From a phage: a stretch of 44,682 bases of DNA. The stretch lies in sequence record PX123008.1, one strand, 5' to 3'. The stretch's first letter is position 1; each line of letters starts with the position of its first letter. The notes below the pieces were generated by a model. It was not told the DNA's origin. It did not search any database and worked only from the letters and a program-made list of their open reading frames with translations. Below, piece by piece: positions 5,026-44,682 of the stretch. The translations under genes and the position numbers were made by a program.

Positions 5026-5295
5026 TTAGCGCGGAATGCCGCAAATCTCGTTTAACGTCTTCACGTCCAGCGCCACCGCCGTGGACTTCGGCTTGTCCGG
5101 GTAGGGAATGAACTGTTCCACTTCAGGCCACGCCTTGATCAGCTTCTTATCGGTATTGTGCAAATCCAGCACGCCGGTAACTGTTAGTTTGAACGCGTCA
5201 TACTTCGCACGCAAATCGCGGCGGGCCTTGTCGTTACGGTCCAGGCGCTTACAGAAGTCGTGGTCCGCCGGGTAGTCTATACGACCGCGTGGCAT
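5026..5295 (-). CDS. hypothetical protein; possibly the C-terminal part of the upstream ORF, see (AT)5 finding
   Basis: ORF MPRGRIDYPADHDF...; frame junction with ORF 5277..5792 coincides with an (AT)5 tract. Confidence 0.4.
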   Translation of the reverse strand: MPRGRIDYPADHDFCKRLDRNDKARRDLRAKYDAFKLTVTGVLDLHNTDKKLIKAWPEVEQFIPYPDKPKSTAVALDVKTLNEICGIPR

Positions 5296-5792
5296 ATATA
5301 TATCGGCAGCGCTTTCCCGTCGTCGTCGACTTCGCACACTGACGCTAACAAAATTTCCTCATACCCTGGCACAATATCGCCGAGATCGGGAGACAGTTTA
5401 TTCATGTATTTATACTCCCAGTATCCGCGATGTGCTCGGAATCGGTGTCCGTCTCCGCTCAATGACACGGTACGGACGTTTCCGCCTGCGTTGATTTCGA
5501 AAGTGGCGTCGTAAACGCTGCCTATACCATATGGGTTGTCGGCGTCATGTCTATACGTCGCCTTATTGGTGTACACACAGACGCCGTATATCTGCGACGG
5601 GTCATTGCCGATTGCATAAATGCGCTCACGTAGCTCGGCGAACGTATGAATGCCTTCCGGCATACAGTCCAGCGTAATGGCGTACGCCAGATTTCGAGAG
5701 TCCATCATGATTGATTTGGCTTCGGTCGCGATTTCGTGGTCGCGCAGGATGTTAGCCAGAATCTGGTTTTTAATGTCTTTCGTCAGTCTCAT
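5277..5792 (-). CDS. hypothetical protein
   Basis: 171 aa, ATG with GAGGA RBS 8 nt upstream; no recognisable motif. Confidence 0.5.
   Translation of the reverse strand: MRLTKDIKNQILANILRDHEIATEAKSIMMDSRNLAYAITLDCMPEGIHTFAELRERIYAIGNDPSQIYGVCVYTNKATYRHDADNPYGIGSVYDATFEINAGGNVRTVSLSGDGHRFRAHRGYWEYKYMNKLSPDLGDIVPGYEEILLASVCEVDDDGKALPIYICHAVV
5294..5303. repeat. (AT)5 dinucleotide tract at the junction of two ORFs
   Basis: atatatatat read directly; removing one AT unit would fuse ORF 5277..5792 to ORF 5026..5295 in frame. Confidence 0.9.
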
Positions 5793-5874
5793 TTTTGTGT
5801 CCTCGTTGTTGGGGCTTTCGCCCCTGTTGGTTTAGTTAAACTTGATGTTGCCGCCAATAGGCTGCTTTTGTTAG

Positions 5875-6393
5875 CTACAAACGCATCGGCATGATAACAA
5901 GGAAGGCACCGCCTTTGAACAGCACACGTGTCGCCTTGTCTACTCCCTGAAATTCCAGTTTTAAGCTATCAAACTTACGGTCGAACAATTTAGCAATTTT
6001 GCAGGCGTCGGACAGGTATGCCCCGGCAAACCCTATAGCCTCCACTTTAGCGCTGTCAAAAGACGTAACTCTACGCCAGTCTGGGAATCGGCCGTCTATG
6101 ATCTCTACGGGTATGGTACCGATTAATACGTCTTTACTATCAAAGAACGCAGCGGAGGTGCCGTCTATGTTGCAATATTCGAATTTAGTAGGTAAGCGTC
6201 CTTTAATTGCTACTATTTTACTTTCACCTTCGGGAACAACCGCGGACCCGCAGAACAAGCGATGACCGTCGGTGGCCACAATGAATCCTTTCTCGTCGAA
6301 AAATACACCGTTCAGATAGTATCGCACGTCATTAGTTGCGGCGCACATCATAGCGGCTTTAAGATCAGCATAGTTAACTTTAATCATTGTCAT
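5875..6393 (-). CDS. truncated beta sliding clamp (DnaN domain II-III) homologue
   Basis: 173 aa from ATG with GAGGA RBS; motifs DVRYYLNGVFF, VATDGHRL, DGRFPDWRRV and C-terminal VIMPMRL match E. coli DnaN residues ~145-366 as recalled; no domain I. Confidence 0.7.
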   Translation of the reverse strand: MTMIKVNYADLKAAMMCAATNDVRYYLNGVFFDEKGFIVATDGHRLFCGSAVVPEGESKIVAIKGRLPTKFEYCNIDGTSAAFFDSKDVLIGTIPVEIIDGRFPDWRRVTSFDSAKVEAIGFAGAYLSDACKIAKLFDRKFDSLKLEFQGVDKATRVLFKGGAFLVIMPMRL

Positions 6394-6416
6394 TTCCTCG
6401 TTGTTGGAGTGCAACC

Positions 6417-6446
6417 AATATAGTGCAACCAATACGAGGATTGCAA
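6417..6446 (-). promoter_or_regulatory. sigma70-like promoter (TTGCAA-N18-TATATT) for the clamp-like gene, with ATTGGTTGCAC motif copies
   Basis: hexamers read directly on the minus strand; downstream leader GGTTGCACTCCAACAACGAGGA then ATG at 6393. Confidence 0.5.
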
Positions 6447-6453
6447 GCGAATT

Positions 6454-6481
6454 TTGCGATTATTTTTATCGCTGATAATAT
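6454..6481 (+). promoter_or_regulatory. putative sigma70-like promoter for the scaffold/capsid operon (TTGCGA-N16-TAATAT)
   Basis: hexamer matches read directly ~55 nt upstream of the scaffold start. Confidence 0.35.
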
Positions 6482-6536
6482 TAGAAGCGTGAAGTCGAGC
6501 GGGTGGCCTGCTCTGCCACAATCCCAGGGGGATAGC

Positions 6537-12010: not shown

Positions 12011-12327
12011 GCGGGACAGGCGGGACGTCCCGTTTTGTCCCGCACCTCTAAAACTGCATATTTACCCACTTACATTGCATAGATTAAAAGCGGGACAGGG
12101 GTGCTGTCCCGATCTGTCCCACCCCCGAAATGTGAATGTCTATTCAGTTTTCGTGCATAAAACAAACGGGACAGAAAGCGGGACAGAATGAGGCGGGACA
12201 AAGCGGGACAGCACCCCTGTCCCCGCCAGTGCTGCCGCGGGTTTTTAGCCGATCGGGACAGGCGGGACAAGCCCAGTCTTTCAGACTAGACGGGGGTCAT
12301 TGGCCCCCCTCGTCTGAGACTGAATAA
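12011..12327. repeat. iteron cluster A: ~8 direct and 4 inverted GCGGGACA copies plus a conserved ~60-bp terminal hairpin
   Basis: GGGACA at 12013, 12092, 12168, 12180, 12195, 12205, 12255, 12264; TGTCCC at 12036, 12105, 12115, 12218; terminal segment nearly identical to 39366..39430. Confidence 0.85.
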
Positions 12328-12390: not shown

Positions 12391-15033
12391 ATGGCAGATC
12401 AGGCAGCGGGCATCACGCTCAAGGCGGACGTCGCGCAAATTAAAACGGCTAATACTGTGCTGGACACATTTGCGCAGAAATCCGAGAACACAGAACAGAA
12501 AGTAAAAAAATTAAACGACACCCTCGGCAAGTCGAAAAAGGTTACTGGCGACGCTGCGGGCGGAATGGAAAAGTTAGCGACTGAATCGCAGCGTGCCGCC
12601 GATGGCATGACGAAACAAGAGCGACTCGCCAGCCGATTAGGCATGTCGACCAAAAACCTGGGATTCGCATCGCGGAACGCCGCATTCCAGTTACAGGATA
12701 TCGCGGTTACGCTTGAGATGGGTATGCCGGTGCACCGCGTTATGCTTCAGCAGCTACCACAGCTTACTGGGGCGTTTGGCGGGTTGGGTAACACACTGCG
12801 TTATGTCGTCGGCACCCTCGGCCCGTTAGGTATCGGCATCGCGGCCTTGACGGCAACGCTTGGCGTAGGGGTGGCAATTACGACCCGCGCAGAGAACCAA
12901 GTGGCGGCGCTTAATAAGACGCTGGCGCTGTCCGGTAATATTTCGGGCCTCACAGCTAACCAGATCCTTGTGCTGTCCGAGAACGCTGAGCGCATGGGCG
13001 GGTCATTTCGCAAGACGCGCGACACAATCCAGGCGCTGGCGGCGGCGGGTGTGAAAGCGGGTGGTGACTTCGGCGCATTGGCTAAGGTAGTTAATGACTT
13101 TGCGAAGGTGTCCAGCCAGCCGATCGAGGATGTGGTAGCGGCGGTGGCGAAGCTGTCAACCGACCCCGTTGGCGGACTGCGTGCGCTGGCGGATAAGTAT
13201 CACGTCGTAAACGAAGCGCAGATCCAGCAGGTACAGTCGCTCGTTGATGCGGGTCGTGAGACAGACGCAGTTGCGTTGGCTAACAAAACAGCCGCTGCGT
13301 CGTTCACCAGCATGACCAATGAGATCAAGGCGAACATGGGTACGCTTGAGCGGTCGATGAACGTCGTCACATCGGCAGCCAAATCGATGTGGGACGCTAT
13401 CCTGGATGTGGGTCGCGCGCAGTCCTCCAATGAATCCGAGATGAAAGCGCGCGAATCACTGCAGCGGCTGACCACGGCTTACTATGCCGAGATGAAAGCG
13501 GTAAACGCTGCCGGTGGGGTAATGACTGAAGCGCAGAAAGCACGTATTAACATGCTTTACAGCGAACTGGTCGCCCAGGAAAAAGTGGTGGCGTCGCTCA
13601 CCCTGCGTAACCGTGCCGAGCGGGACAACGCCAGCGCCGCGGAAGAAGCAGCAAAGGCGAACGAGGAGGCCAACCGCACCGCCCGCGACCGCGCCGCGTT
13701 TGAGAAGGAGTACGCAACCAACGCGAAGCGGCGCGCCGACGAGATCGCCCGCCTCAATTTGCTGAATAAGCGTGGCGTTATTGACGAGAAAGAGCTTGCT
13801 GAGGCGGTGAAGCAGGTCAACGAGCGCTACAAAGACCCGGCACCGAAGAAGGCCGCGGCTGTTCGCGTGGATGCAGGGATGAAAATGCTGGAAGTCGCGC
13901 GCAGCGAACTGGCACAGCTTCGAGAATCAGGCAAGCAGATCGAAGCCAACGCGTCGACGCAGACCCGCACGCAACGCGCTCAAGCGGCCCTAAACAAGCT
14001 GATCGCGGATAATGAGCAGTTAATCGCAGCAAGCAAAGAAAGGGCACTAACGGCAGCAGAAAAGCAGCAGATTGCAGAATTCGGACGCGTGAAGGAAGTA
14101 CGCGAGCAGATCGTCGAAGAAGCCAAATTGCTGGACGCGAAAGAGAAGCAGGTCAAGGCGCACGCGCAGATCGACGCCTTCGTTAAGAACCAGAACGCCG
14201 AGCTAAAAGCCACCGCGGCGGGCTATGCGCTTTCCACTCGCGAAGCGGCAAACCTGCGTGAAGAATTGCAGCTAATTGACCGCCTGAAGCGGGTTGGAGC
14301 TAACGATACTGATATTGATCTGGCGGTATCTAAGCTGCGCGAAGTGCAGGAAGCACAGACCGGTGCTAACGCCTCGCTATGGGATGGCTTCAGCCGCGGG
14401 CTTAAGGATAGCGTGGATGAAATGGGTAACGGCTATACGCAGATGACGTCACTCACAAAATTCACGTTCGGCGCTATGCAGGACACGATGAACGAGTTTT
14501 TTGAGACGGGCAAGCTGAACGCAAAGGATATGGTTAAATCCATCCTGAGCGAATTAATAAAGCTGGCTACCTCGCAGGCATTCAAGTCCATCGTTAGCGC
14601 TTTCGGTGGCGACGGCGGAAAAAACGGATTGTTCGGCGCTATCTTCTCGGGCCTCACTAAGAATGCGGACGGCGGAGCGTACGCAGGAGGCAATCTCGCG
14701 GCATATTCGGGGAAAGTGGTAAGCCAGCCTACCTTTTTCAGTTATGGCGTTCAGGCGTTCGCTAAGGGCGCGGGATTGATGGGCGAGGCTGGACCCGAGG
14801 CCATCATGCCACTGAAGCGCGGGCCGGACGGGAAACTGGGTGTTGCCGCGTCTGGCGCAGGCGGTGGTATGGTCGTGACGACTAACGTTTACACGGGGTC
14901 CGGTAAAACAGATACCAGTGTCAGCGGGCCGGACCCCCGTACCGCGCAGGCGTTCGGCAAGCAAATCACCGAAGCGGTGAAGGCCGAGATCGTGAAAGCG
15001 ACGAAACCGGGTGGTGTACTTTACAAACGATGA
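12391..15033 (+). CDS. tail tape measure protein
   Basis: 880 aa, alanine-rich coiled-coil-like with a glycine-rich C-terminal region; follows the G/GT-like chaperone. Confidence 0.85.
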   Translation: MADQAAGITLKADVAQIKTANTVLDTFAQKSENTEQKVKKLNDTLGKSKKVTGDAAGGMEKLATESQRAADGMTKQERLASRLGMSTKNLGFASRNAAFQLQDIAVTLEMGMPVHRVMLQQLPQLTGAFGGLGNTLRYVVGTLGPLGIGIAALTATLGVGVAITTRAENQVAALNKTLALSGNISGLTANQILVLSENAERMGGSFRKTRDTIQALAAAGVKAGGDFGALAKVVNDFAKVSSQPIEDVVAAVAKLSTDPVGGLRALADKYHVVNEAQIQQVQSLVDAGRETDAVALANKTAAASFTSMTNEIKANMGTLERSMNVVTSAAKSMWDAILDVGRAQSSNESEMKARESLQRLTTAYYAEMKAVNAAGGVMTEAQKARINMLYSELVAQEKVVASLTLRNRAERDNASAAEEAAKANEEANRTARDRAAFEKEYATNAKRRADEIARLNLLNKRGVIDEKELAEAVKQVNERYKDPAPKKAAAVRVDAGMKMLEVARSELAQLRESGKQIEANASTQTRTQRAQAALNKLIADNEQLIAASKERALTAAEKQQIAEFGRVKEVREQIVEEAKLLDAKEKQVKAHAQIDAFVKNQNAELKATAAGYALSTREAANLREELQLIDRLKRVGANDTDIDLAVSKLREVQEAQTGANASLWDGFSRGLKDSVDEMGNGYTQMTSLTKFTFGAMQDTMNEFFETGKLNAKDMVKSILSELIKLATSQAFKSIVSAFGGDGGKNGLFGAIFSGLTKNADGGAYAGGNLAAYSGKVVSQPTFFSYGVQAFAKGAGLMGEAGPEAIMPLKRGPDGKLGVAASGAGGGMVVTTNVYTGSGKTDTSVSGPDPRTAQAFGKQITEAVKAEIVKATKPGGVLYKR

Positions 15034-16456: not shown

Positions 16457-17252
16457 ATGTTAACGAAGAAGGTTAAAAGCGATATCGCCGCACACGTCGC
16501 GGCATGTCTGCCGGAAGAAGCCTGCGGCCTGGTTGTCATGGTGGGCCGCAAACAAGTTTTTATCCCGTGCGTTAACGTATTCGAAGACCCTACCGGTGCG
16601 CGCTCGCGTAAGGACGCGTTTACAATCAGTGATACGGCCTGGATGGATGCGGAGGAGCTCGCGTAAGGACGCGTTTACAATCAGTGATACGGCCTGGATG
16701 GATGCGGAGGATATGGGAGACGTCGTTCGCGTAGTCCACTCACACCCAGGTCAGCGCGAGTTAACCCCGTCATTGGGTGACGTCAACGGCTGCAACGGCA
16801 GCGGCGTCGTCTGGACCATCACTAACGAATATGGCGACTTCATCGAGATCGACCCGGAAGACCCGCCGCTGGTAGGCCGCCGATTTGTTCTCGGAATTAC
16901 GGATTGCTATGGCCTCGTAATGGACTGGCACAAAAAGCAGGGCGTGATTCTTCCGGACTTCCGCGTGCCGTACAACTGGTGGGAGGCAGGCGAAAACCTG
17001 TATATGGACAATTGGTATGGAGCTGGCTTCCGGGAGTGTGCGGAGAATACGCCTGGGGCGATGGTCATCATGCAGATTAGCGCGCCAGTGCCTAACCATG
17101 CCGGAATCTACCTTCCGGGCAACCAACTCCTACACCATATCTACGGCAGCTTGTCGAGCGTCGTCCCCTTCCGGGCAGGATTTTTCCGCGACAATGTGGT
17201 TAAATGGGTGCGTCACAAAGACTTACCGTGGGATATCACAGAATGGCAATGA
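16457..17252 (+). pseudogene. tail assembly protein gpK-like (MPN/JAMM + NlpC/P60) split by a 55-bp tandem duplication
   Basis: N-terminal ORF 16457..16666 (EACGL...PCVN) stops inside the repeat; the rest (VVHSHPG...TDCYG...) continues in a frame shifted by +1; removing one repeat copy restores one 247-codon ORF. Confidence 0.7.
16602..16711. repeat. perfect 55-bp tandem duplication (2 copies)
   Basis: 16602..16656 is identical to 16657..16711, read directly. Confidence 0.95.
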
Positions 17253-22459: not shown

Positions 22460-22539
22460 GGTATCATCTCCTATATTTGGTTGAGTTTTAGTATTACACC
22501 GCTCGATCAAGAATGCAACCAATTTACGAGGATTTAGCT

Positions 22540-23925
22540 ATGGCGGCGGGAACATTATCCGTAACGAATAACAGCAAGGCAGTTGCAGGGGTTGACACGA
22601 CGTTCACCGCGTTTAAAGCTGGCGACTTCTTAACTCTGGTGGTGGGGCAAGTGCCTTACACCGTGGCAATCGCATCCATCGAAAGCGACACCGCGCTTAC
22701 GCTTGTGCTGCCGTTCGACGGACCCACGGCAACCGGCCTCGCGTGGGATGGCGTTAAGCGCGATACCATGTCACTGGCAACGATGGGCGTTACCGTACAG
22801 GCGCAGAAAGCACTGCGCTTGATGATTGCGGACGAAAACAACTGGCGTGCAATCTTCGGAGACGAAGAAGAAATCACGGTAACGCTGCCGAACGGGCAAG
22901 TTATGCAGGGTATGTCGTGGGGATACCTGTCGCAATTGCTGAAGGAAGTTGACCCCGTTGAAATGCGCAACCTGCAACAACAAGCCGCGGCATCTGAAGC
23001 AGCAGCGCAAGGATTTCGCGATCAGGCCAATGCTGCGAAGTTAGACGCACAAGCCGCGCGCGACGCGGCAAAGACCTCCGAGACTAACGCCGAGCAATGG
23101 GCGCAAAGCGTGAACGCCAACAACCTGCTAACAAAATCCGGCAACCTGCTAACAAAATCCGGCAACCTGGCGGGCATTACGGATTCGGCGGAGGCTCGTA
23201 ACAATCTTGGTCTGGGTCCTTTGTCTACAGCAAATGTGGTACCGGTAGAAAACGGTGGTACGGGAGTAACCAGGGCCGAGGATCTATGGCCTGTAGTTCG
23301 ACCTGTCGACGTGTTCGGAAACGTAGGTCACCTTATAGGTATTCCTAACGGTATTACACGAAATCATATCTGGCTGTGGAACACCGCAGATACACCACCT
23401 GCCGGTTGGGTTAACTACATGGAGGGGGGTTGGTTTAATGGTGTATGGCGTTTAGGTGGGGTTCGTGGCGGTAACGAGAACTTATCACATGCGCAGATTA
23501 CCGTTAATAGCGGTCAGGGTTCGGAAGCTCACTTCATGTTTTATCCTGATGGTTCCGCGCTCGCCGCAAACTGGGTGTCAACATCTGACCCACGTGTCAA
23601 GTCTCTGGTTGAGGTTATACCGGACCCTCTTGATTTGATGCGCAGTATCCGGGGTTATTCGTGGTACTACGAGCATACTGGTAGTAAGGGCTTCGGGTTC
23701 CTGTCTTCCGAGGTGAAGGTTAACTTCCGCGGGGCTGTTAAGACATTCGGTGATGCTGAGTTGCCCGATGGCACCGTAGTCCATGATGTAGAAGGTGTTG
23801 ATGTATCTGGTGTATCTGCCGCCCTCCACCATGAAGCCATTCTTGCTTTGATGGATAAAATGGAGGATATGCAGAAGGAACTGGAGGAGTTGAAAACTGC
23901 CGTAGCGGCCAAGACTAAAGCATAA
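22540..23925 (+). CDS. tail fibre protein
   Basis: ATG with GAGGA RBS 8 nt upstream (the track start at 22513 has no RBS); contains an in-frame NLLTKSG x2 repeat; 3' end duplicated. Confidence 0.65.
   Translation: MAAGTLSVTNNSKAVAGVDTTFTAFKAGDFLTLVVGQVPYTVAIASIESDTALTLVLPFDGPTATGLAWDGVKRDTMSLATMGVTVQAQKALRLMIADENNWRAIFGDEEEITVTLPNGQVMQGMSWGYLSQLLKEVDPVEMRNLQQQAAASEAAAQGFRDQANAAKLDAQAARDAAKTSETNAEQWAQSVNANNLLTKSGNLLTKSGNLAGITDSAEARNNLGLGPLSTANVVPVENGGTGVTRAEDLWPVVRPVDVFGNVGHLIGIPNGITRNHIWLWNTADTPPAGWVNYMEGGWFNGVWRLGGVRGGNENLSHAQITVNSGQGSEAHFMFYPDGSALAANWVSTSDPRVKSLVEVIPDPLDLMRSIRGYSWYYEHTGSKGFGFLSSEVKVNFRGAVKTFGDAELPDGTVVHDVEGVDVSGVSAALHHEAILALMDKMEDMQKELEELKTAVAAKTKA
23121..23162. repeat. 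21-bp in-frame tandem repeat inside the tail fibre gene
   Basis: caacctgctaacaaaatccgg twice, encoding NLLTKSG twice. Confidence 0.9.
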
Positions 23926-23981
23926 GGAGAAAGGGCCATACGGCCCAGACTAAAGCATAAGGAGAAAGGGCCATACGGCCC
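23912..23981. repeat. 35-bp tandem duplication covering the tail fibre stop codon and terminator hairpin
   Basis: agactaaagcataaggagaaagggccatacggccc twice; only the second copy is followed by T9. Confidence 0.9.
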
Positions 23982-25150: not shown

Positions 25151-25180
25151 ACTATAGTGCAACCAACCTATTGGTTGCAA
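25151..25180 (-). promoter_or_regulatory. sigma70-like promoter (TTGCAA-N18-TATAGT) overlapping a palindromic TGCAACCAA-N4-TTGGTTGCA site
   Basis: hexamers and the inverted repeat at 25158..25179 read directly. Confidence 0.5.
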
Positions 25181-26795: not shown

Positions 26796-26821
26796 AAAAA
26801 GGGCGTCCAAACCGGACACCC
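26796..26821 (-). terminator. hairpin plus U-tract overlapping the start region of the promoter at 26824..26852
   Basis: minus-strand GGGTGTCC-ggttt-GGACGCCC followed by TTTTT. Confidence 0.4.
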
Positions 26822-26823
26822 TC

Positions 26824-26852
26824 AATATAATGCAACCAATATGATTATGCAA
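26824..26852 (-). promoter_or_regulatory. sigma70-like promoter (TTGCAT-N17-TATATT) with two ATTGGTTGCAT copies
   Basis: hexamers read directly; motif copies at 26831..26840 and 26848..26857. Confidence 0.5.
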
Positions 26853-26857
26853 CCAAT

Positions 26858-29560: not shown

Positions 29561-29734
29561 TTATTTTTGTTCTGCACGGTAGCGGCGCTGCCGTTCGCGC
29601 TCTTTCTTATTGCGGCACGATTTGCACTCTGCCCGATACCCGTCTGGACTGCGCGCAGTCTTACCGGTGTATTTGTGGAACTGGGATAGCGGCTTTACAC
29701 AGCCGCAATTACTACAACGTTTTTCTTCAATCAT
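29561..29734 (-). CDS. small zinc-ribbon protein
   Basis: 57 aa from ATG with GAGGA RBS; CxxC...C...CxxC (CSNCGC...ECKSC); promoter-like TTGCTG-N17-TATAGT with motif copies upstream. Confidence 0.4.
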   Translation of the reverse strand: MIEEKRCSNCGCVKPLSQFHKYTGKTARSPDGYRAECKSCRNKKERERQRRYRAEQK

Positions 29735-29774
29735 CTCTAAAATCCTCGATATGGCTAACCGGCACACTATACCG

Positions 29775-30053
29775 CTATGCGACCAATTCAGCAACCAATA
29801 AATCGCAGTCGGCTATGTTGTCGATAACGCGAACGTCAGCACCGCGGCGGGCCATTCGCTCATGTTCACGTACCTGGTGCGGCTTCGGTTTTCCGCCTGG
29901 GCGCTTCACTTCGACGAACACTATTATGCCGTTGATGATAATAATCAGGTCGGGCGCACCTGCGCGCCCCTCCCATGCCAGTTTTCGGCAGAATCCGCCA
30001 ACCTCTTTAACCCGTTTCATAAGGTGACGCTGCACCTTGCCTTCTGGTGTCAT
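29775..30053 (-). CDS. VRR-NUC domain nuclease
   Basis: 92 aa, start overlaps the polymerase stop; PDLIII...VEVKRPGGK PD-(D/E)xK-like core. Confidence 0.6.
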   Translation of the reverse strand: MTPEGKVQRHLMKRVKEVGGFCRKLAWEGRAGAPDLIIIINGIIVFVEVKRPGGKPKPHQVREHERMARRGADVRVIDNIADCDLLVAELVA

Positions 30054-33355: not shown

Positions 33356-33420
33356 TTTCCAATTCCTCATTTTCACATGTATCGGGGTTATTGGAAGCCA
33401 CCCCGTTCGGCTTGGTTGCC

Positions 33421-33449
33421 AATTTACTTGGTTGCGCCTGAGCGGTCAA
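33421..33449 (-). promoter_or_regulatory. sigma70-like promoter (TTGACC-N17-TAAATT) for the SSB gene, flanked by GCAACCAAG copies
   Basis: hexamers read directly; motif copies at 33412..33420 and 33428..33436. Confidence 0.45.
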
Positions 33450-36102: not shown

Positions 36103-36338
36103 GGTATATCTCCGATTGGTTAAGTTTAGGTGTCGGCAGTTAACTTCGTCGGTGGCCTTAACATATTGCCAGGTTACGCGTTCTCCCGTTCGGGTAGTGG
36201 ACCTGGTTATATAATCACGGTTGGGAATCCTGACACTTCGATCCGGCCCCTGCGTTGCCCCTCTCCAGTTTGCGTCCTGCATCCTGTCGACGGAGTGAAT
36301 GATAGATTGGTTGCAGGATGGGTGTCAACAACTAATTT

Positions 36339-36400
36339 CAAAAAAAAGCGCCGAGGCAAAATGCGACGGCGCTAACCAATAAGAGACAATGAGACGAGAA
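36339..36400 (-). ncRNA. candidate small RNA (~60 nt) with its own promoter and terminator
   Basis: minus-strand TTGAAA-N16-TAATAA promoter at 36402..36431; terminator AGCGCCG-loop-CGGCGCT plus T8 at 36339..36373; no ORF. Confidence 0.3.
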
Positions 36401-36443
36401 TTATTATTACACGCGTGCGCGCCCGTTTCAATATCCAAAGGAT

Positions 36444-36472
36444 TTGACACCGTGCGGTTTTGGGTGTAGTTT
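36444..36472 (+). promoter_or_regulatory. sigma70-like promoter (TTGACA-N17-TAGTTT) for the HTH gene
   Basis: hexamers read directly ~30 nt upstream of the GAGGA RBS. Confidence 0.45.
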
Positions 36473-36503
36473 CGTTGGTCATTAACCAACTGAGGACAGA
36501 GCA

Positions 36504-36833
36504 ATGAATGTAAACGACGCAATCGAAATGTTAACGAAGACTGTTTGCAGTGAGACAAGCCGGTCATGGGCTTACACCGATGCCGTGGGGGCGGTGTTAT
36601 TTGAAATCGAACGACTGCGGCTTGCCGAAAAAGAATTGCGCGCCAGGCTGGAACTACTCAATGGTACGGCAGCCAGCAAGCTGCAAAAGCACAATGAAGA
36701 AATGGAAGAATACAAAAAACAGGTTATTCGTTTGCGCGATGAGGGGAAGTCATGGGCGATGATCGCCGAGCTAACCGGAATTAATCAGAGCACCGTGCGA
36801 TCCTGGGTACGCAATAATAAAACCTCTAAGTAA
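36504..36833 (+). CDS. helix-turn-helix DNA-binding protein
   Basis: 109 aa, GAGGA RBS; C-terminal HTH-like segment GKSWAMIAELTGINQSTVRSWVRN preceded by a coiled-coil; directly upstream of the primase-helicase gene. Confidence 0.55.
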   Translation: MNVNDAIEMLTKTVCSETSRSWAYTDAVGAVLFEIERLRLAEKELRARLELLNGTAASKLQKHNEEMEEYKKQVIRLRDEGKSWAMIAELTGINQSTVRSWVRNNKTSK

Positions 36834-39108: not shown

Positions 39109-39183
39109 ATTTTGCGCGCGTTGGTTGCCGATATGGGAATTCCCATATCGCTAAAAGATTAATTTGTGCGCGCGTTGGTTGCC
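39101..39183. repeat. imperfect ~29-bp direct repeats bracketing a perfect 22-bp palindrome
   Basis: aagattaaattttgcgcgcgttggttgcc (39101..39129) and aagattaatttgtgcgcgcgttggttgcc (39155..39183) flank cgatatgggaattcccatatcg (39129..39150); the first repeat includes the primase stop codon. Confidence 0.85.
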
Positions 39184-39250
39184 ATTTTGAGTGTTTTTAG
39201 TTGGTCGCATTGGTTGCCGTGTAGTGTGAATATAATGAATAGTTATGCAA

Positions 39251-39430
39251 TAAAACTGCATAAACTAAGCGGGACAGAAAGCGGGACAAACAAGGGGCGG
39301 GACAAAGCGGGACAGCACCCCCTGTCCCGCCCGGATGGCGCGGCCTGGAGAGGAGCGGGACAAGCGGGACAAAGCCCAGTCTTTCAGACTAGACGGGGGT
39401 CAACGGCCCCCCTCGTCTGAGACTGAATAA
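39251..39430. repeat. iteron cluster B: 6 direct and 1 inverted GCGGGACA copies plus the conserved ~60-bp terminal hairpin
   Basis: GGGACA at 39271, 39283, 39299, 39309, 39357, 39366; TGTCCC at 39323; 39366..39430 nearly identical to 12264..12327. Confidence 0.85.
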
Positions 39431-39585
39431 AATCCGGAGATTGCAAAATACACGGCAGCATGATGCGAAGTGCGGTCGCGGATGAACTAGGCAACCAATG
39501 CTAGTTGCATTATGCGGAGTGGAAAACGCAGTTTGCAGTTACAGCAGATAGCGATCAACTTTTTCATGCGCGTGATTAATATTGG

Positions 39586-39614
39586 TTGCATTCACCCCGG
39601 CACCCTGCTATATT
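39586..39614 (+). promoter_or_regulatory. sigma70-like promoter (TTGCAT-N17-TATATT) with ATTGGTTGCA copies and a conserved leader
   Basis: hexamers read directly; leader GGTTGCACACCAACATGAGGA then ATG at 39643. Confidence 0.55.
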
Positions 39615-39642
39615 GGTTGCACACCAACATGAGGACTGAACA

Positions 39643-39840
39643 ATGGAACACGAAGACCTGGTCGACGAATTGCTTGAGCTGATTGAGGCTGAGAACAAAG
39701 CCGATTTGCAAGCACGCGCAGCATACATGGTCGGCAACATTAAGAAATCGCGCCACTACGCCGGATTGCGTGTAAAGGCGCAAGAGGCATTGCTGCAATT
39801 CCTGGACAGCGTAACCATCACGAAGAGGACTGAACGATGA
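39643..39840 (+). CDS. hypothetical early protein
   Basis: 65 aa, GAGGA RBS, first gene after the consensus-like promoter. Confidence 0.5.
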   Translation: MEHEDLVDELLELIEAENKADLQARAAYMVGNIKKSRHYAGLRVKAQEALLQFLDSVTITKRTER

Positions 39841-40142: not shown

Positions 40143-40421
40143 GTGGTAAAAATGGGCCGTAGACGAGCAAAACAGCTTTCGTGGCATATTCCACTGCATT
40201 GCATACGAATATGGGCTAAGAATGCGAATGCGGGGGATTCTGTATTCTGGTGCTATCGCGATGACGTAAAGCCGTTGACGCAGATTCGCTACCTGCACCA
40301 GTTCGCAGCGCAACACGATTTCAGGGTGCGGACCTCCTTGCAACCAATGGGGATTCGTATTACATTACGCCGGAAGCCCGCCGTTGAGCGGGTAGGAAAA
40401 CACTGGAGACTGAGCAAATGA
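40143..40421 (+). CDS. hypothetical early protein
   Basis: 92 aa; start uncertain (GTG 40143 or ATG 40152, both with weak RBS). Confidence 0.35.
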   Translation: MVKMGRRRAKQLSWHIPLHCIRIWAKNANAGDSVFWCYRDDVKPLTQIRYLHQFAAQHDFRVRTSLQPMGIRITLRRKPAVERVGKHWRLSK

Positions 40422-43032: not shown

Positions 43033-43061
43033 TTGACTTGCAACCAATTAATAGCTCATAC
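43033..43061 (+). promoter_or_regulatory. putative promoter (TTGACT-N17-TCATAC) containing TGCAACCAAT
   Basis: good -35, weak -10; followed by leader GCGACCAATCAACGAGAGGAG and a 26-codon ORF. Confidence 0.35.
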
Positions 43062-43093
43062 TGCGACCAATCAACGAGAGGAGTGGTAAACTA

Positions 43094-43174
43094 TGGCACG
43101 TAATGATATTTGGGTATTGGCGATCTGGTCAGCCGCAGCATTTATCGGTATGGTTATTTGCGAATTGCTATAAC
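43094..43174 (+). CDS. small hydrophobic peptide ORF (26 aa), doubtful
   Basis: ATG 9 nt after GAGAGGAG; MARNDIWVLAIWSAAAFIGMVICELL. Confidence 0.3.
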
Positions 43175-43234: not shown

Positions 43235-44377
43235 ATGCACCCGCAAACTAAAATCACCGACGAGCAATTGATTGCTGAATTACAATCCGGCGCTACATCG
43301 AAAGAGATTTCTAAGAAGTACGGTTTATCCCTACGAAACGTCTACATGCGCAAAGCACGCCTGTCGAAAAAGGGGATCGGGCACGGTAATGATGCCGTAA
43401 TCCGTAAGCGCGTTGCCGATGGCTTCGGCGTTAAGCGCGTATCCGCCCTGGTGCGCGGCAATGGTGAAGAGGTCATGTCGTGGGTCATCACCGAGCAGGA
43501 CAAGGAGCGCCAGCTTGAAGCAATGCGCGCCGTTGTCGAGGGCATGAACAGCGAAATCACACCGGCAGCACCCGTAAGCGCCCCGCCTATCCCGATCCAG
43601 GCACTTGACCTACTCAACCTGTACACCGTGTCAGACTTCCACCTGGGCATGTTGGCCTGGGGCGAGGAGACTGGCGAAGACTGGGATATGGCGATTGCCG
43701 AAGACCTGTTCTACCGCTGGTTTGTCGAAGCCTTCGCACGCGCACCGGACGCAGGCACTGCCGTAATTAATATTCTCGGTGATATGGCGCACTTTGATAG
43801 CCTCGATGCCGTCACCCCAGCCAGCGGGCACGTACTGGACGCGGATACTCGCTACCAGAAGCTGGTCCGCTACATGATTCGCATGGTGCGCAACGTGGTA
43901 GACCTGGCGCTGCAAAAACACCACAAAGTCAAACTGCTAATCGTCCAGGGTAATCATGACGAATCGGGTATGATTTGGCTTGCTGAGATGTTCAATACTC
44001 TGTACGAGAACGAGCCGCGCGTCGAGGTGGACACATCCCCGGATGTGTACAAAATGGTGCAGCACGGTAAAACAACGCTGTTCTTCCACCACGGGCACAA
44101 AGCACGTTTTGACGCTATTGAAACCGTCATGATTTCCAAATTCAGACAGGCTTTCGGGGCCAGCGAGTACAGCTACGCGCATGTAGGCCACTTGCACCAC
44201 CAGAAGATTGTAGAATCCCGCAACATGATTGTTGAACAACACCGGACCCTCGCAGCGAAGGACGCCTATGCCAGCCGCGGCGGTTGGATGTCCGGTCGTA
44301 GCGCCAACGTCATCACCTATAGCGCCAACTACGGCGAAGTAGCGCGCTTAACCATTAGCCCGGAAATGTTGAAATGA
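43235..44377 (+). CDS. metallophosphoesterase (calcineurin-like) with N-terminal HTH-like segment
   Basis: 380 aa, AGGAAG RBS; motifs SDFHLG, GDMAHFD, QGNHDE, HHGH, GHLHH; N-terminal SKEISKKYGLSLRNVYMRKARL. Confidence 0.6.
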   Translation: MHPQTKITDEQLIAELQSGATSKEISKKYGLSLRNVYMRKARLSKKGIGHGNDAVIRKRVADGFGVKRVSALVRGNGEEVMSWVITEQDKERQLEAMRAVVEGMNSEITPAAPVSAPPIPIQALDLLNLYTVSDFHLGMLAWGEETGEDWDMAIAEDLFYRWFVEAFARAPDAGTAVINILGDMAHFDSLDAVTPASGHVLDADTRYQKLVRYMIRMVRNVVDLALQKHHKVKLLIVQGNHDESGMIWLAEMFNTLYENEPRVEVDTSPDVYKMVQHGKTTLFFHHGHKARFDAIETVMISKFRQAFGASEYSYAHVGHLHHQKIVESRNMIVEQHRTLAAKDAYASRGGWMSGRSANVITYSANYGEVARLTISPEMLK

Positions 44378-44593: not shown

Positions 44594-44619
44594 AGCCCAC
44601 CGATTTGGTGGGCTTTTTT
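44594..44619 (+). terminator. rho-independent terminator
   Basis: GCCCACC-gattt-GGTGGGC followed by TTTTTT. Confidence 0.65.
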
Positions 44620-44682
44620 GTGCCTGTTATAATCCCCTTAGATGGCAGGGCCGTCTCTTATGTTGCCGATGGTCGGCGCATA

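Follow-up and report, generated by a model that had tools for sequence, protein, structure and literature searches.

A predicted leftward promoter at 6410..6446 (P1) carries two copies of a short word, TGCAACCAAT, that recurs in the phage genome around it. This raises the question of whether the word reflects the duplication of promoter cassettes or a site that is read by a regulator, and, in the latter case, which protein might read it. The window, i.e., the whole stretch of DNA that was analysed (44,682 nucleotides, record PX123008.1), comprises the genome, complete or almost so, of a virulent Escherichia coli siphophage that belongs to the HK578-like Dhillonviruses; it shares 91-95% identity with Shigella phage EP23, Sodalis phage SO-1, and Escherichia phage GeorgBuechner. 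On a gene map made by tblastn with GeorgBuechner proteins, structural and lysis genes run rightward, and a divergent region at 36283-36503 is the point from which the genes for DNA metabolism extend leftward. Dhillonviruses are common coliphages that appear in the BASEL collection, in defence-system studies, and among phage therapy isolates. The literature searched contained neither the motif in a phage context nor work on Dhillonvirus promoters, regulators, or transcriptomes, and the public records annotate three consensus promoters only for HK578 and 'repeat regions A and B' only for SO-1.

A ten-base-pair word in predicted sigma70-type promoters

The word is an asymmetric 10-bp sequence with the consensus KGCRACCAAY. 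Twelve exact copies of TGCAACCAA are present where 0.37 are expected, a number that none of 100 shuffles reached, and the commonest 10-mer of the genome is ATTGGTTGCA (n = 11). With the pattern KGCRACCAA[TCG], 22 sites were found against 1.96 +/- 1.35 expected from order-2 Markov simulations; non-coding DNA makes up 7.0% of the genome, yet it holds 17 of the 22 (binomial P = 4e-16). When 23 sites were aligned, the core GCRACCAA was invariant, with T or G preferred before it and T or C after it, and conservation ended sharply at both edges of the 10 bp, the flanks not being conserved. The initial annotation had listed copies of the word as a recurrent motif. Every listed copy is present at its coordinate, and the Markov background scan (22 sites against about two) shows an excess over chance, but the list was incomplete, as it lacked a copy at 39200 and an intragenic one at 40339.

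All promoters discussed here are predictions from the sigma70 consensus, and "forward" denotes the orientation ATTGGTTGCA along the direction of transcription (Table 1). The interval from -45 to +5 of a sigma70-like hexamer pair contains 71% of the 8-mer cores, compared with 11.8% of the genome. Eleven hexamer pairs with the word, their hexamers 16-18 bp apart, score 8-11 of 12 consensus matches, and at least ten sigma70-type promoters are predicted to carry the word, which is thus present in the core of almost all promoters that can be recognised in this phage. It recurs at three positions, namely, I) forward at -39; II) in either orientation at -22; and III) over the -10/+1 region, forward at -8 or reverse at -6. 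Most promoters have two copies, spaced by 9, 12, 14, 16, 17, 23, or 31 bp; the pair at PB is inverted, and all other pairs are direct. The promoters with the word in the spacer include near-consensus ones, i.e., PG, PF, and TTGACA-17-TATCTT of the relative L005.

Table 1. Predicted promoters, word copies, and related features of the window, followed by the placement classes of the word relative to the predicted start
Feature	Coordinates	Strand or orientation	Predicted elements	Word copies and remarks
P1	6410..6446	-	TTGCAA 6446-6441, 18-nt spacer, TATATT 6422-6417	6424-6433 in spacer (-23..-14); 6410-6419 over -9..+1
GCGGGACA array	12011-12262			between tail chaperone genes and tape-measure gene
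Leftward promoter	22491..22523	-	TTGCAT (22518-22513)-16-TAATAC (22496-22491)	-35 supplied by copy 22514-22523; degenerate reversed TCAACCAAA at 22476-22485 near +1
PB	25151..25180	-	TTGCAA-18-TATAGT	perfect inverted pair 25158-25166 / 25171-25179 across promoter
PC	26824..26857	-	TTGCAT-17-TATATT	26848-26857 = -35; 26831-26840 fills spacer to 1 nt before -10
Zinc-ribbon protein	29564..29734	-		57 aa, four cysteines, basic tail; alternative candidate binder
PE	29766..29799	-	TTGCTG-17-TATAGT	29790-29799 (-35); 29778-29787 (spacer); upstream of zinc-ribbon gene 29564-29734
PF	33411..33449	-	TTGACC-17-TAAATT	reversed copies 33427-33436 (spacer) and 33411-33420 (-6..+4); upstream of SSB gene
PG	36299..36328	-	TTGACA-18-TATCAT (11/12 consensus matches)	reversed copy 36306-36315 in spacer, end 1 nt before -10
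Promoter of HTH / helicase-primase operon	36444..36489	+	TTGACA 36444-36449, 17-nt spacer, TAGTTT 36467-36472
HTH protein	36504..36833	+		109 aa; long helix, then C-terminal HTH
Four copies	39120..39218	-		at 39120, 39174, 39200, 39209
GCGGGACA array B	39269-39364			just after helicase-primase gene
Single copy GGCAACCAAT	39490..39499	+		overlaps end of weak leftward hexamer pair (TAGCAT|TGGTTGCC)
PD	39581..39621	+	TTGCAT-17-TATATT	39581-39590 = -35; 39612-39621 covers -9..+1; small rightward genes starting at 39643
Intragenic hexamer pair	40338..40366	+	TTGCAA-17-TACATT	40339-40348
PK	43033..43071	+	TTGACT-18-CATACT	reversed copies 43039-43048 (spacer) and 43062-43071 (-7..+3); just after terminator
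Placement -40..-31	PC 26852, PE 29794, PD 39586, 22518	forward	TTGCA = -35 hexamer
Placement -23..-14	P1 6446, PB 25180, PC	forward	ends 1 nt before -10
Placement -23..-14	PG 36328	reverse	ends 1 nt before -10
Placement -22..-13	PF 33449	reverse	abuts -10
Placement -9..+1	P1, PD	forward
Placement -7..+4	PF, PK 43033	reverse
Placement -35..-26	PB, 40338	reverse
Placement -30..-21	PK	reverse

The placement of the word differs in part from what had been described earlier. GGTTGCAC had been reported immediately after the -10 hexamer of four promoters, which is the case at 6417..6446 and 39586..39614 only, whereas at 25151..25180 and 26824..26852 a copy stops 1 nt short of the -10. The previously noted inverted repeat at 25158..25179, TGCAACCAA-ccta-TTGGTTGCA, is exact. 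A separate context in sense leaders, just upstream of the Shine-Dalgarno sequence, had also been proposed, and it found no support here, since such copies are accounted for by promoters that lie next to them or diverge from them. For example, the copy at 22514, read as a tail-fibre leader element, is the -35 of a leftward TTGCAT-16-TAATAC (22518..22491), and the one at 43062 overlaps the -10/+1 region of PK (43033..43062). The sequence ACGAGGA is this phage's usual ribosome-binding site. It is extremely improbable that the copies are replication iterons or an RNA-level leader element: seven copies at 39120-39621 do lie beside the helicase-primase gene, and ACGAG(A)GGA follows three copies, but most copies are dispersed, single or paired, at promoters over 37 kb, they occur on both strands relative to transcription, many are upstream of predicted starts, and separate GCGGGACA arrays have the anatomy of iterons. 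An Rfam scan of the whole window at the gathering threshold gave no match.

The four copies at 39120..39218 lie beyond the end of the helicase-primase gene, ahead of the GCGGGACA array, and a perfect TATAAT is present at 39231-39236; a perfect 20-bp palindrome, GATATGGGAATTCCCATATC, was also observed right after the helicase-primase stop, between two word copies (39130-39149). Upstream of terS, an extended -10 (TGtTATAAT, 44625-44633) lacks both a -35 and a word copy and is likely the promoter of the structural operon; in this region (44601-44633), the extended -10 is preceded by a terminator, CCCACCgatttGGTGGG with a T run.

Several further features were observed around the word-bearing promoters. 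The variable leftward genes under P1 (5875-6390 and 5277-5792) encode an Nmad5-domain protein (nucleotide-modification associated) and a DNA polymerase III beta clamp-like protein, and in relatives other genes occupy this slot (5277-6390) behind the same promoter. Right after PC, at 26796-26829, lies a terminator-like hairpin (GGGTGTCC-ggttt-GGACGCCC and a T run) that is kept in L005 with different arm sequences. As the predicted start of PC falls inside its 5' arm, PC transcripts may escape a terminator that stops upstream transcripts. Directly downstream of PK, a 26-codon ORF (43093-43173) with a strong ribosome-binding site encodes the hydrophobic peptide MARNDIWVLAIWSAAAFIGMVICELL, and its start is conserved in HK578.

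Duplication and conservation among relatives

P1 shares a block of 42 nt (79%) with PB, of 22 nt (91%) with PC, and of 22 nt (95%) with PD. PE, PF, PG, and PK have only the 8-10-bp word in common with other promoters, and its orientation is reversed in PF, PG, and PK. The earlier suggestion of a cassette spread by duplication is accordingly retained for P1, PB, PC, and PD, which contain paralogous blocks, but not for PE, PF, PG, and PK, which match in the core only. Because four promoters use the TTGCA of the word as their -35 and several are paralogous cassettes, part of the repetition reflects shared ancestry. That there is no dedicated factor at all, and that a family of promoter cassettes (-35 TTGCA with context, GG-rich discriminator) was duplicated and kept as good sigma70 promoters, is quite unlikely. 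This would be consistent with the paralogous blocks, with the fact that no fewer than six hexamer pairs have TTGCA as their -35, and with the recurrence of TATATTGGTTGCA. It is at odds with the opposite-orientation 10-mer in the spacers of PF, PG, and PK, which own a good -35, and with the retention of the word in spacers, which are normally unconstrained, while the remaining spacer diverges; moreover, conservation stops exactly at the edges of the 10-mer.

In GeorgBuechner, HK578, and SO-1, copies are present at homologous places, also beside different downstream 'moron' genes, and the intragenic hexamer pair at 40338..40366 is kept with its copy in these three phages and in L021 despite differing flanks. 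Distant relatives (L005, L007, L021, and L022; 71-79% DNA identity) were found via homologues of the HTH protein encoded at 36504-36833. In these, GCAACCAA is again the top 8-mer and again lies inside promoters, and the alignments show conserved -35, -10, and word sequences with a diverged remaining spacer. Across relatives of 71-79% identity, 76 of 96 word columns are invariant, compared with 260 of 514 other intergenic columns (Fisher p = 1.7e-7), and both PE copies are 100% conserved in relatives that are 72% identical. The number of copies per promoter varies, e.g., the single copy of PG in the window corresponds to two overlapping ones in L005, and PF and PK, with two copies each in the window, have only one in L005. 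This turnover of copy number with retained occupancy points to selection on occupancy rather than simple inheritance.

The word is enriched 10-40-fold in all 23 related loci examined, namely, in 22 loci with an HTH homologue and in the further locus L145, which has 12 copies of TGCAACCAAT within 20 kb, at the same promoters. Of three outgroups whose replication module is related, Kagunavirus-like L004 and Scappvirus L024 have no copy, and Jerseyvirus L023 has one. A MAFFT alignment of all word-bearing promoters was uninformative, and when viral contigs were scanned for pairs of cores, the matches listed were mainly chance hits and tandem repeats. As judged from these sequence comparisons, the word is real, conserved, and lineage-specific, it defines a predicted Dhillonvirus promoter set, and it is under purifying selection. 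Of the initial proposal of a phage-specific regulator site, a lineage-specific, promoter-embedded element in either orientation that is conserved at about 70% identity is upheld indirectly, but its leader context is not.

Candidate binders and a second repeat

The HTH protein at the divergent region is the only stand-alone HTH protein of the window that is detectable with Pfam, and it matches HTH_23, Sigma70_r4_2, and HTH_28. Its AlphaFold2 model (mean pLDDT 85) has a long helix (residues 21-79) and a C-terminal HTH. A Foldseek search of the model against the PDB gave generic HTH matches only (DeoR, LuxR/GerE, resolvase, sigma-4), all with E > 0.9, and a sequence search of the PDB returned a designed repeat protein and coiled coils only. 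Among 1.84 billion protein representatives, three full-length relatives were found, the remainder being generic HTH repeats; one of the three, P0025, led to the locus L145.

It was considered whether this protein, encoded at the divergent early promoter region, binds the word and acts as an autoregulated, Cro-like global repressor; this tentative reading is unlikely. In its favour, the C-terminal HTH sits on a long helix, and the protein is found in every word-bearing locus and is absent from word-less outgroups. Among 16 homologues that differ entirely at their N-termini, residues 47-106 do not vary, and this segment is also the best conserved in the comparison with L005 (83% identity). Exact or degenerate word copies lie at the protein's own promoter, namely, a degenerate dyad, TTGGTcattaACCAA, at 36475-36489 in the window and an exact GCAACCAAT in L005 and L007, and in Serratia phage Scapp the corresponding gene position is occupied by an HTH protein of the Cro/C1 type. 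HK578, however, has no word copy at this promoter, and in L145 the HTH domain is only 43% identical, with a changed recognition helix, while TGCAACCAAT is unchanged. The divergence of L145 is otherwise about that of L005 (PolA 81%, TerL 81%, helicase-primase 68%; other proteins 68-83%). What does change with the HTH in L145 is a second repeat: at 12684-12880 of this locus, GGGGTGCCA arrays precede the same conserved hairpin that follows GCGGGACA at the counterpart in the window (39269-39364). The HTH thus co-varies with the iteron-like arrays and not with the word, which lowers the probability that it binds TGCAACCAAT, the co-variation being a single switch event. The co-occurrence of protein and word stands, but the initial suggestion of the HTH protein as the binder has become doubtful.

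In the window, 14 of the 17 copies of the second repeat, GCGGGACA(A/G), lie in two arrays, and each array is followed by a 59-nt hairpin block (12269-12327 and 39372-39430) that is 97% identical between the sites. The arrays look like iterons at an origin and at a second cis site, and an annotated ORF that overlaps array B (39235-39420) is probably not a gene. The switch in L145 suggests that the HTH protein may bind the GCGGGACA arrays and act as an origin-binding protein.

Possible binders of the word include the zinc-ribbon protein encoded at 29564-29734, another phage protein, or a host factor. The zinc-ribbon protein is 65-70% conserved in all word-bearing relatives examined, and PE, the site pair with the strongest conservation, lies immediately upstream of its gene; a homologue in Scapp, which lacks the word, is 47% identical. 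An HTH-metallophosphatase (43235-44377) was rejected as a candidate, as the word-less L004 and L023 have homologues (76% and 75% identical, respectively) and no match was found in the sampled stretches (~17-20 kb) of the word-bearing L005, L022, and L145.

That a host DNA-binding protein reads the word, so that the phage couples its transcription to host physiology, is very unlikely. The word does not vary among phages whose own small proteins show little conservation, which fits a slowly evolving partner. The half-word ATTGGT/ACCAAT presumably resembles half-sites of enterobacterial GntR-family regulators, and TGCAAC resembles what we take to be a CytR half-site. On the other hand, no copy is present in a Kagunavirus-like coliphage that shares the host, and most sites lack the dyad partners that GntR-type or NtrC-type dimers need. 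Bacterial genomes were scanned for paired 10-mers; the matches listed came from scattered, unrelated taxa, with no enterobacterial regulon visible among them. We know of no E. coli consensus that matches the full 10-mer; to our knowledge, those of Sigma54, NtrC, PdhR/GntR-type regulators, PurR, CytR, and the marbox do not fit, either because the full word is not accommodated or because dyad partners are missing. E. coli CytR operators consist of GTTGCATT octamers in direct or inverted order with flexible spacing. The word resembles them in its core TGCAAC and in that paired half-sites tolerate both orientations and variable spacing; it differs in that its invariant CCAAT end is not part of the CytR site and that AA precedes TGCAAC in only 3-4 of 22 copies.

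Proposed function and likeness to known systems

The reading that is favoured, with a confidence slightly above even, is that the word is an operator-like site of a sequence-specific regulator that limits early and middle transcription. The regulator would bind the 10-bp word within the core of host-type (sigma70) promoters and would compete with RNA polymerase for the -35, for the spacer beside the -10, or for the -10/+1 region, resulting in repression or in a feedback limit on early and middle genes (DNA-metabolism, host-takeover, and 'moron' genes). A negative effect is predicted because the word covers core promoter elements, so that a bound protein would compete with the polymerase. An operator-type element is further favoured by the near-consensus promoters, which carry the word and should need no activator, and the terS promoter, which has no copy, was counted for the same reading. 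The variable spacing and mostly direct repeats count against it, as these are unusual for classical dimeric repressors; they would imply a monomer-like or flexibly linked recognition rather than a rigid dimer. We infer from the sequence comparisons that a protein binds the word, that its effect is negative, and which proteins might be the binder.

A positive or architectural role is possible if nearly all promoters carry the word. In an unlikely, broader variant, a single factor would bind as a monomer, in either orientation, at about every promoter and act as a genome-wide governor of dosage or timing, with the HTH protein being an origin-binding protein in a two-site replication system (origin and second cis site). 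Such a governor could repress leftward early promoters and favour the back-to-back late promoters at 6410-6536 and 22460-22540, or, alternatively, it could couple all phage transcription to a host protein.

As a proposed operator-like site, the word is functionally closest to lambda-type operators and to the phi29 p4 switch; its kind is known, and this member is new. As for Cro/CI at OR and OL, short sites lie over the -35, the spacer, and the -10, with several per promoter, and a small HTH gene is found at a divergent early region. The overlap with core promoter elements was found (-40..-31, -23..-14, and -9..+4), whereas dyad-symmetric sites of 14-20 bp, as for a dimer, were not, and only PB has an inverted pair. 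The lambda operators are 17-bp pseudo-palindromes at two loci of a temperate phage; here, a 10-bp asymmetric word occurs mostly in direct pairs, 9-31 bp apart, at no fewer than ten promoters of a virulent phage. The phi29 p4 system likewise belongs to a virulent phage that relies on the sigma-A/sigma70 polymerase of its host, with several promoters bearing a phage-specific site, but p4 sites are inverted repeats at fixed upstream positions, and no p4 or p6 homologue was found. The back-to-back arrangement of word-bearing leftward promoters with late genes (6410-6536 and 22460-22540) would allow simultaneous repression and activation; phi29-like activation in this phage is pure speculation.

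The T4 MotA box is likewise an asymmetric, phage-specific word of about 9-10 bp that is present at many promoters and replaces a poor -35, and at four promoters here the word replaces the -35 in the same register. The MotA box, however, is confined to one orientation and to a position of about -30 and depends on MotA and AsiA, whereas the word occurs in both orientations and in at least five position classes, and several of its promoters have a consensus -35; no MotA or AsiA domain came up when about 40 proteins of the window were scanned with Pfam and PHROG. The lambda Q-binding element belongs to a single late promoter and consists of a site between the -35 and the -10, with a promoter-proximal pause and a downstream terminator that has to be overridden. 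The word is instead found at ten or more promoters, mostly of early or DNA-metabolism genes, and PC is the only one that is directly followed by a terminator-like hairpin. Replication iterons form clustered arrays of direct repeats, confined to one or two loci beside replication genes, a feature of the GCGGGACA repeat, and TGCAACCAAT is dispersed.

The word yields a promoter map of at least ten predicted promoters and a testable regulon, and its copies are mutable sites for engineering or for synthetic phage-responsive promoters. The comparison also separates two DNA-word systems in one genome, namely, the promoter word TGCAACCAAT and the GCGGGACA arrays.

Two tandem duplications were also observed in the window. 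A 35-bp duplication with 97% identity (23906-23975) lies at the 3' end of the tail-fibre gene and adjoins the terminator of that gene. In the gene for the minor tail protein, a perfect 55-bp duplication (16602-16711) divides the coding sequence between ORFs 16457-16666 and 16533-17252, and the GeorgBuechner protein aligns from residue 50 only; this is either a frameshift mutation or an artefact of assembly.
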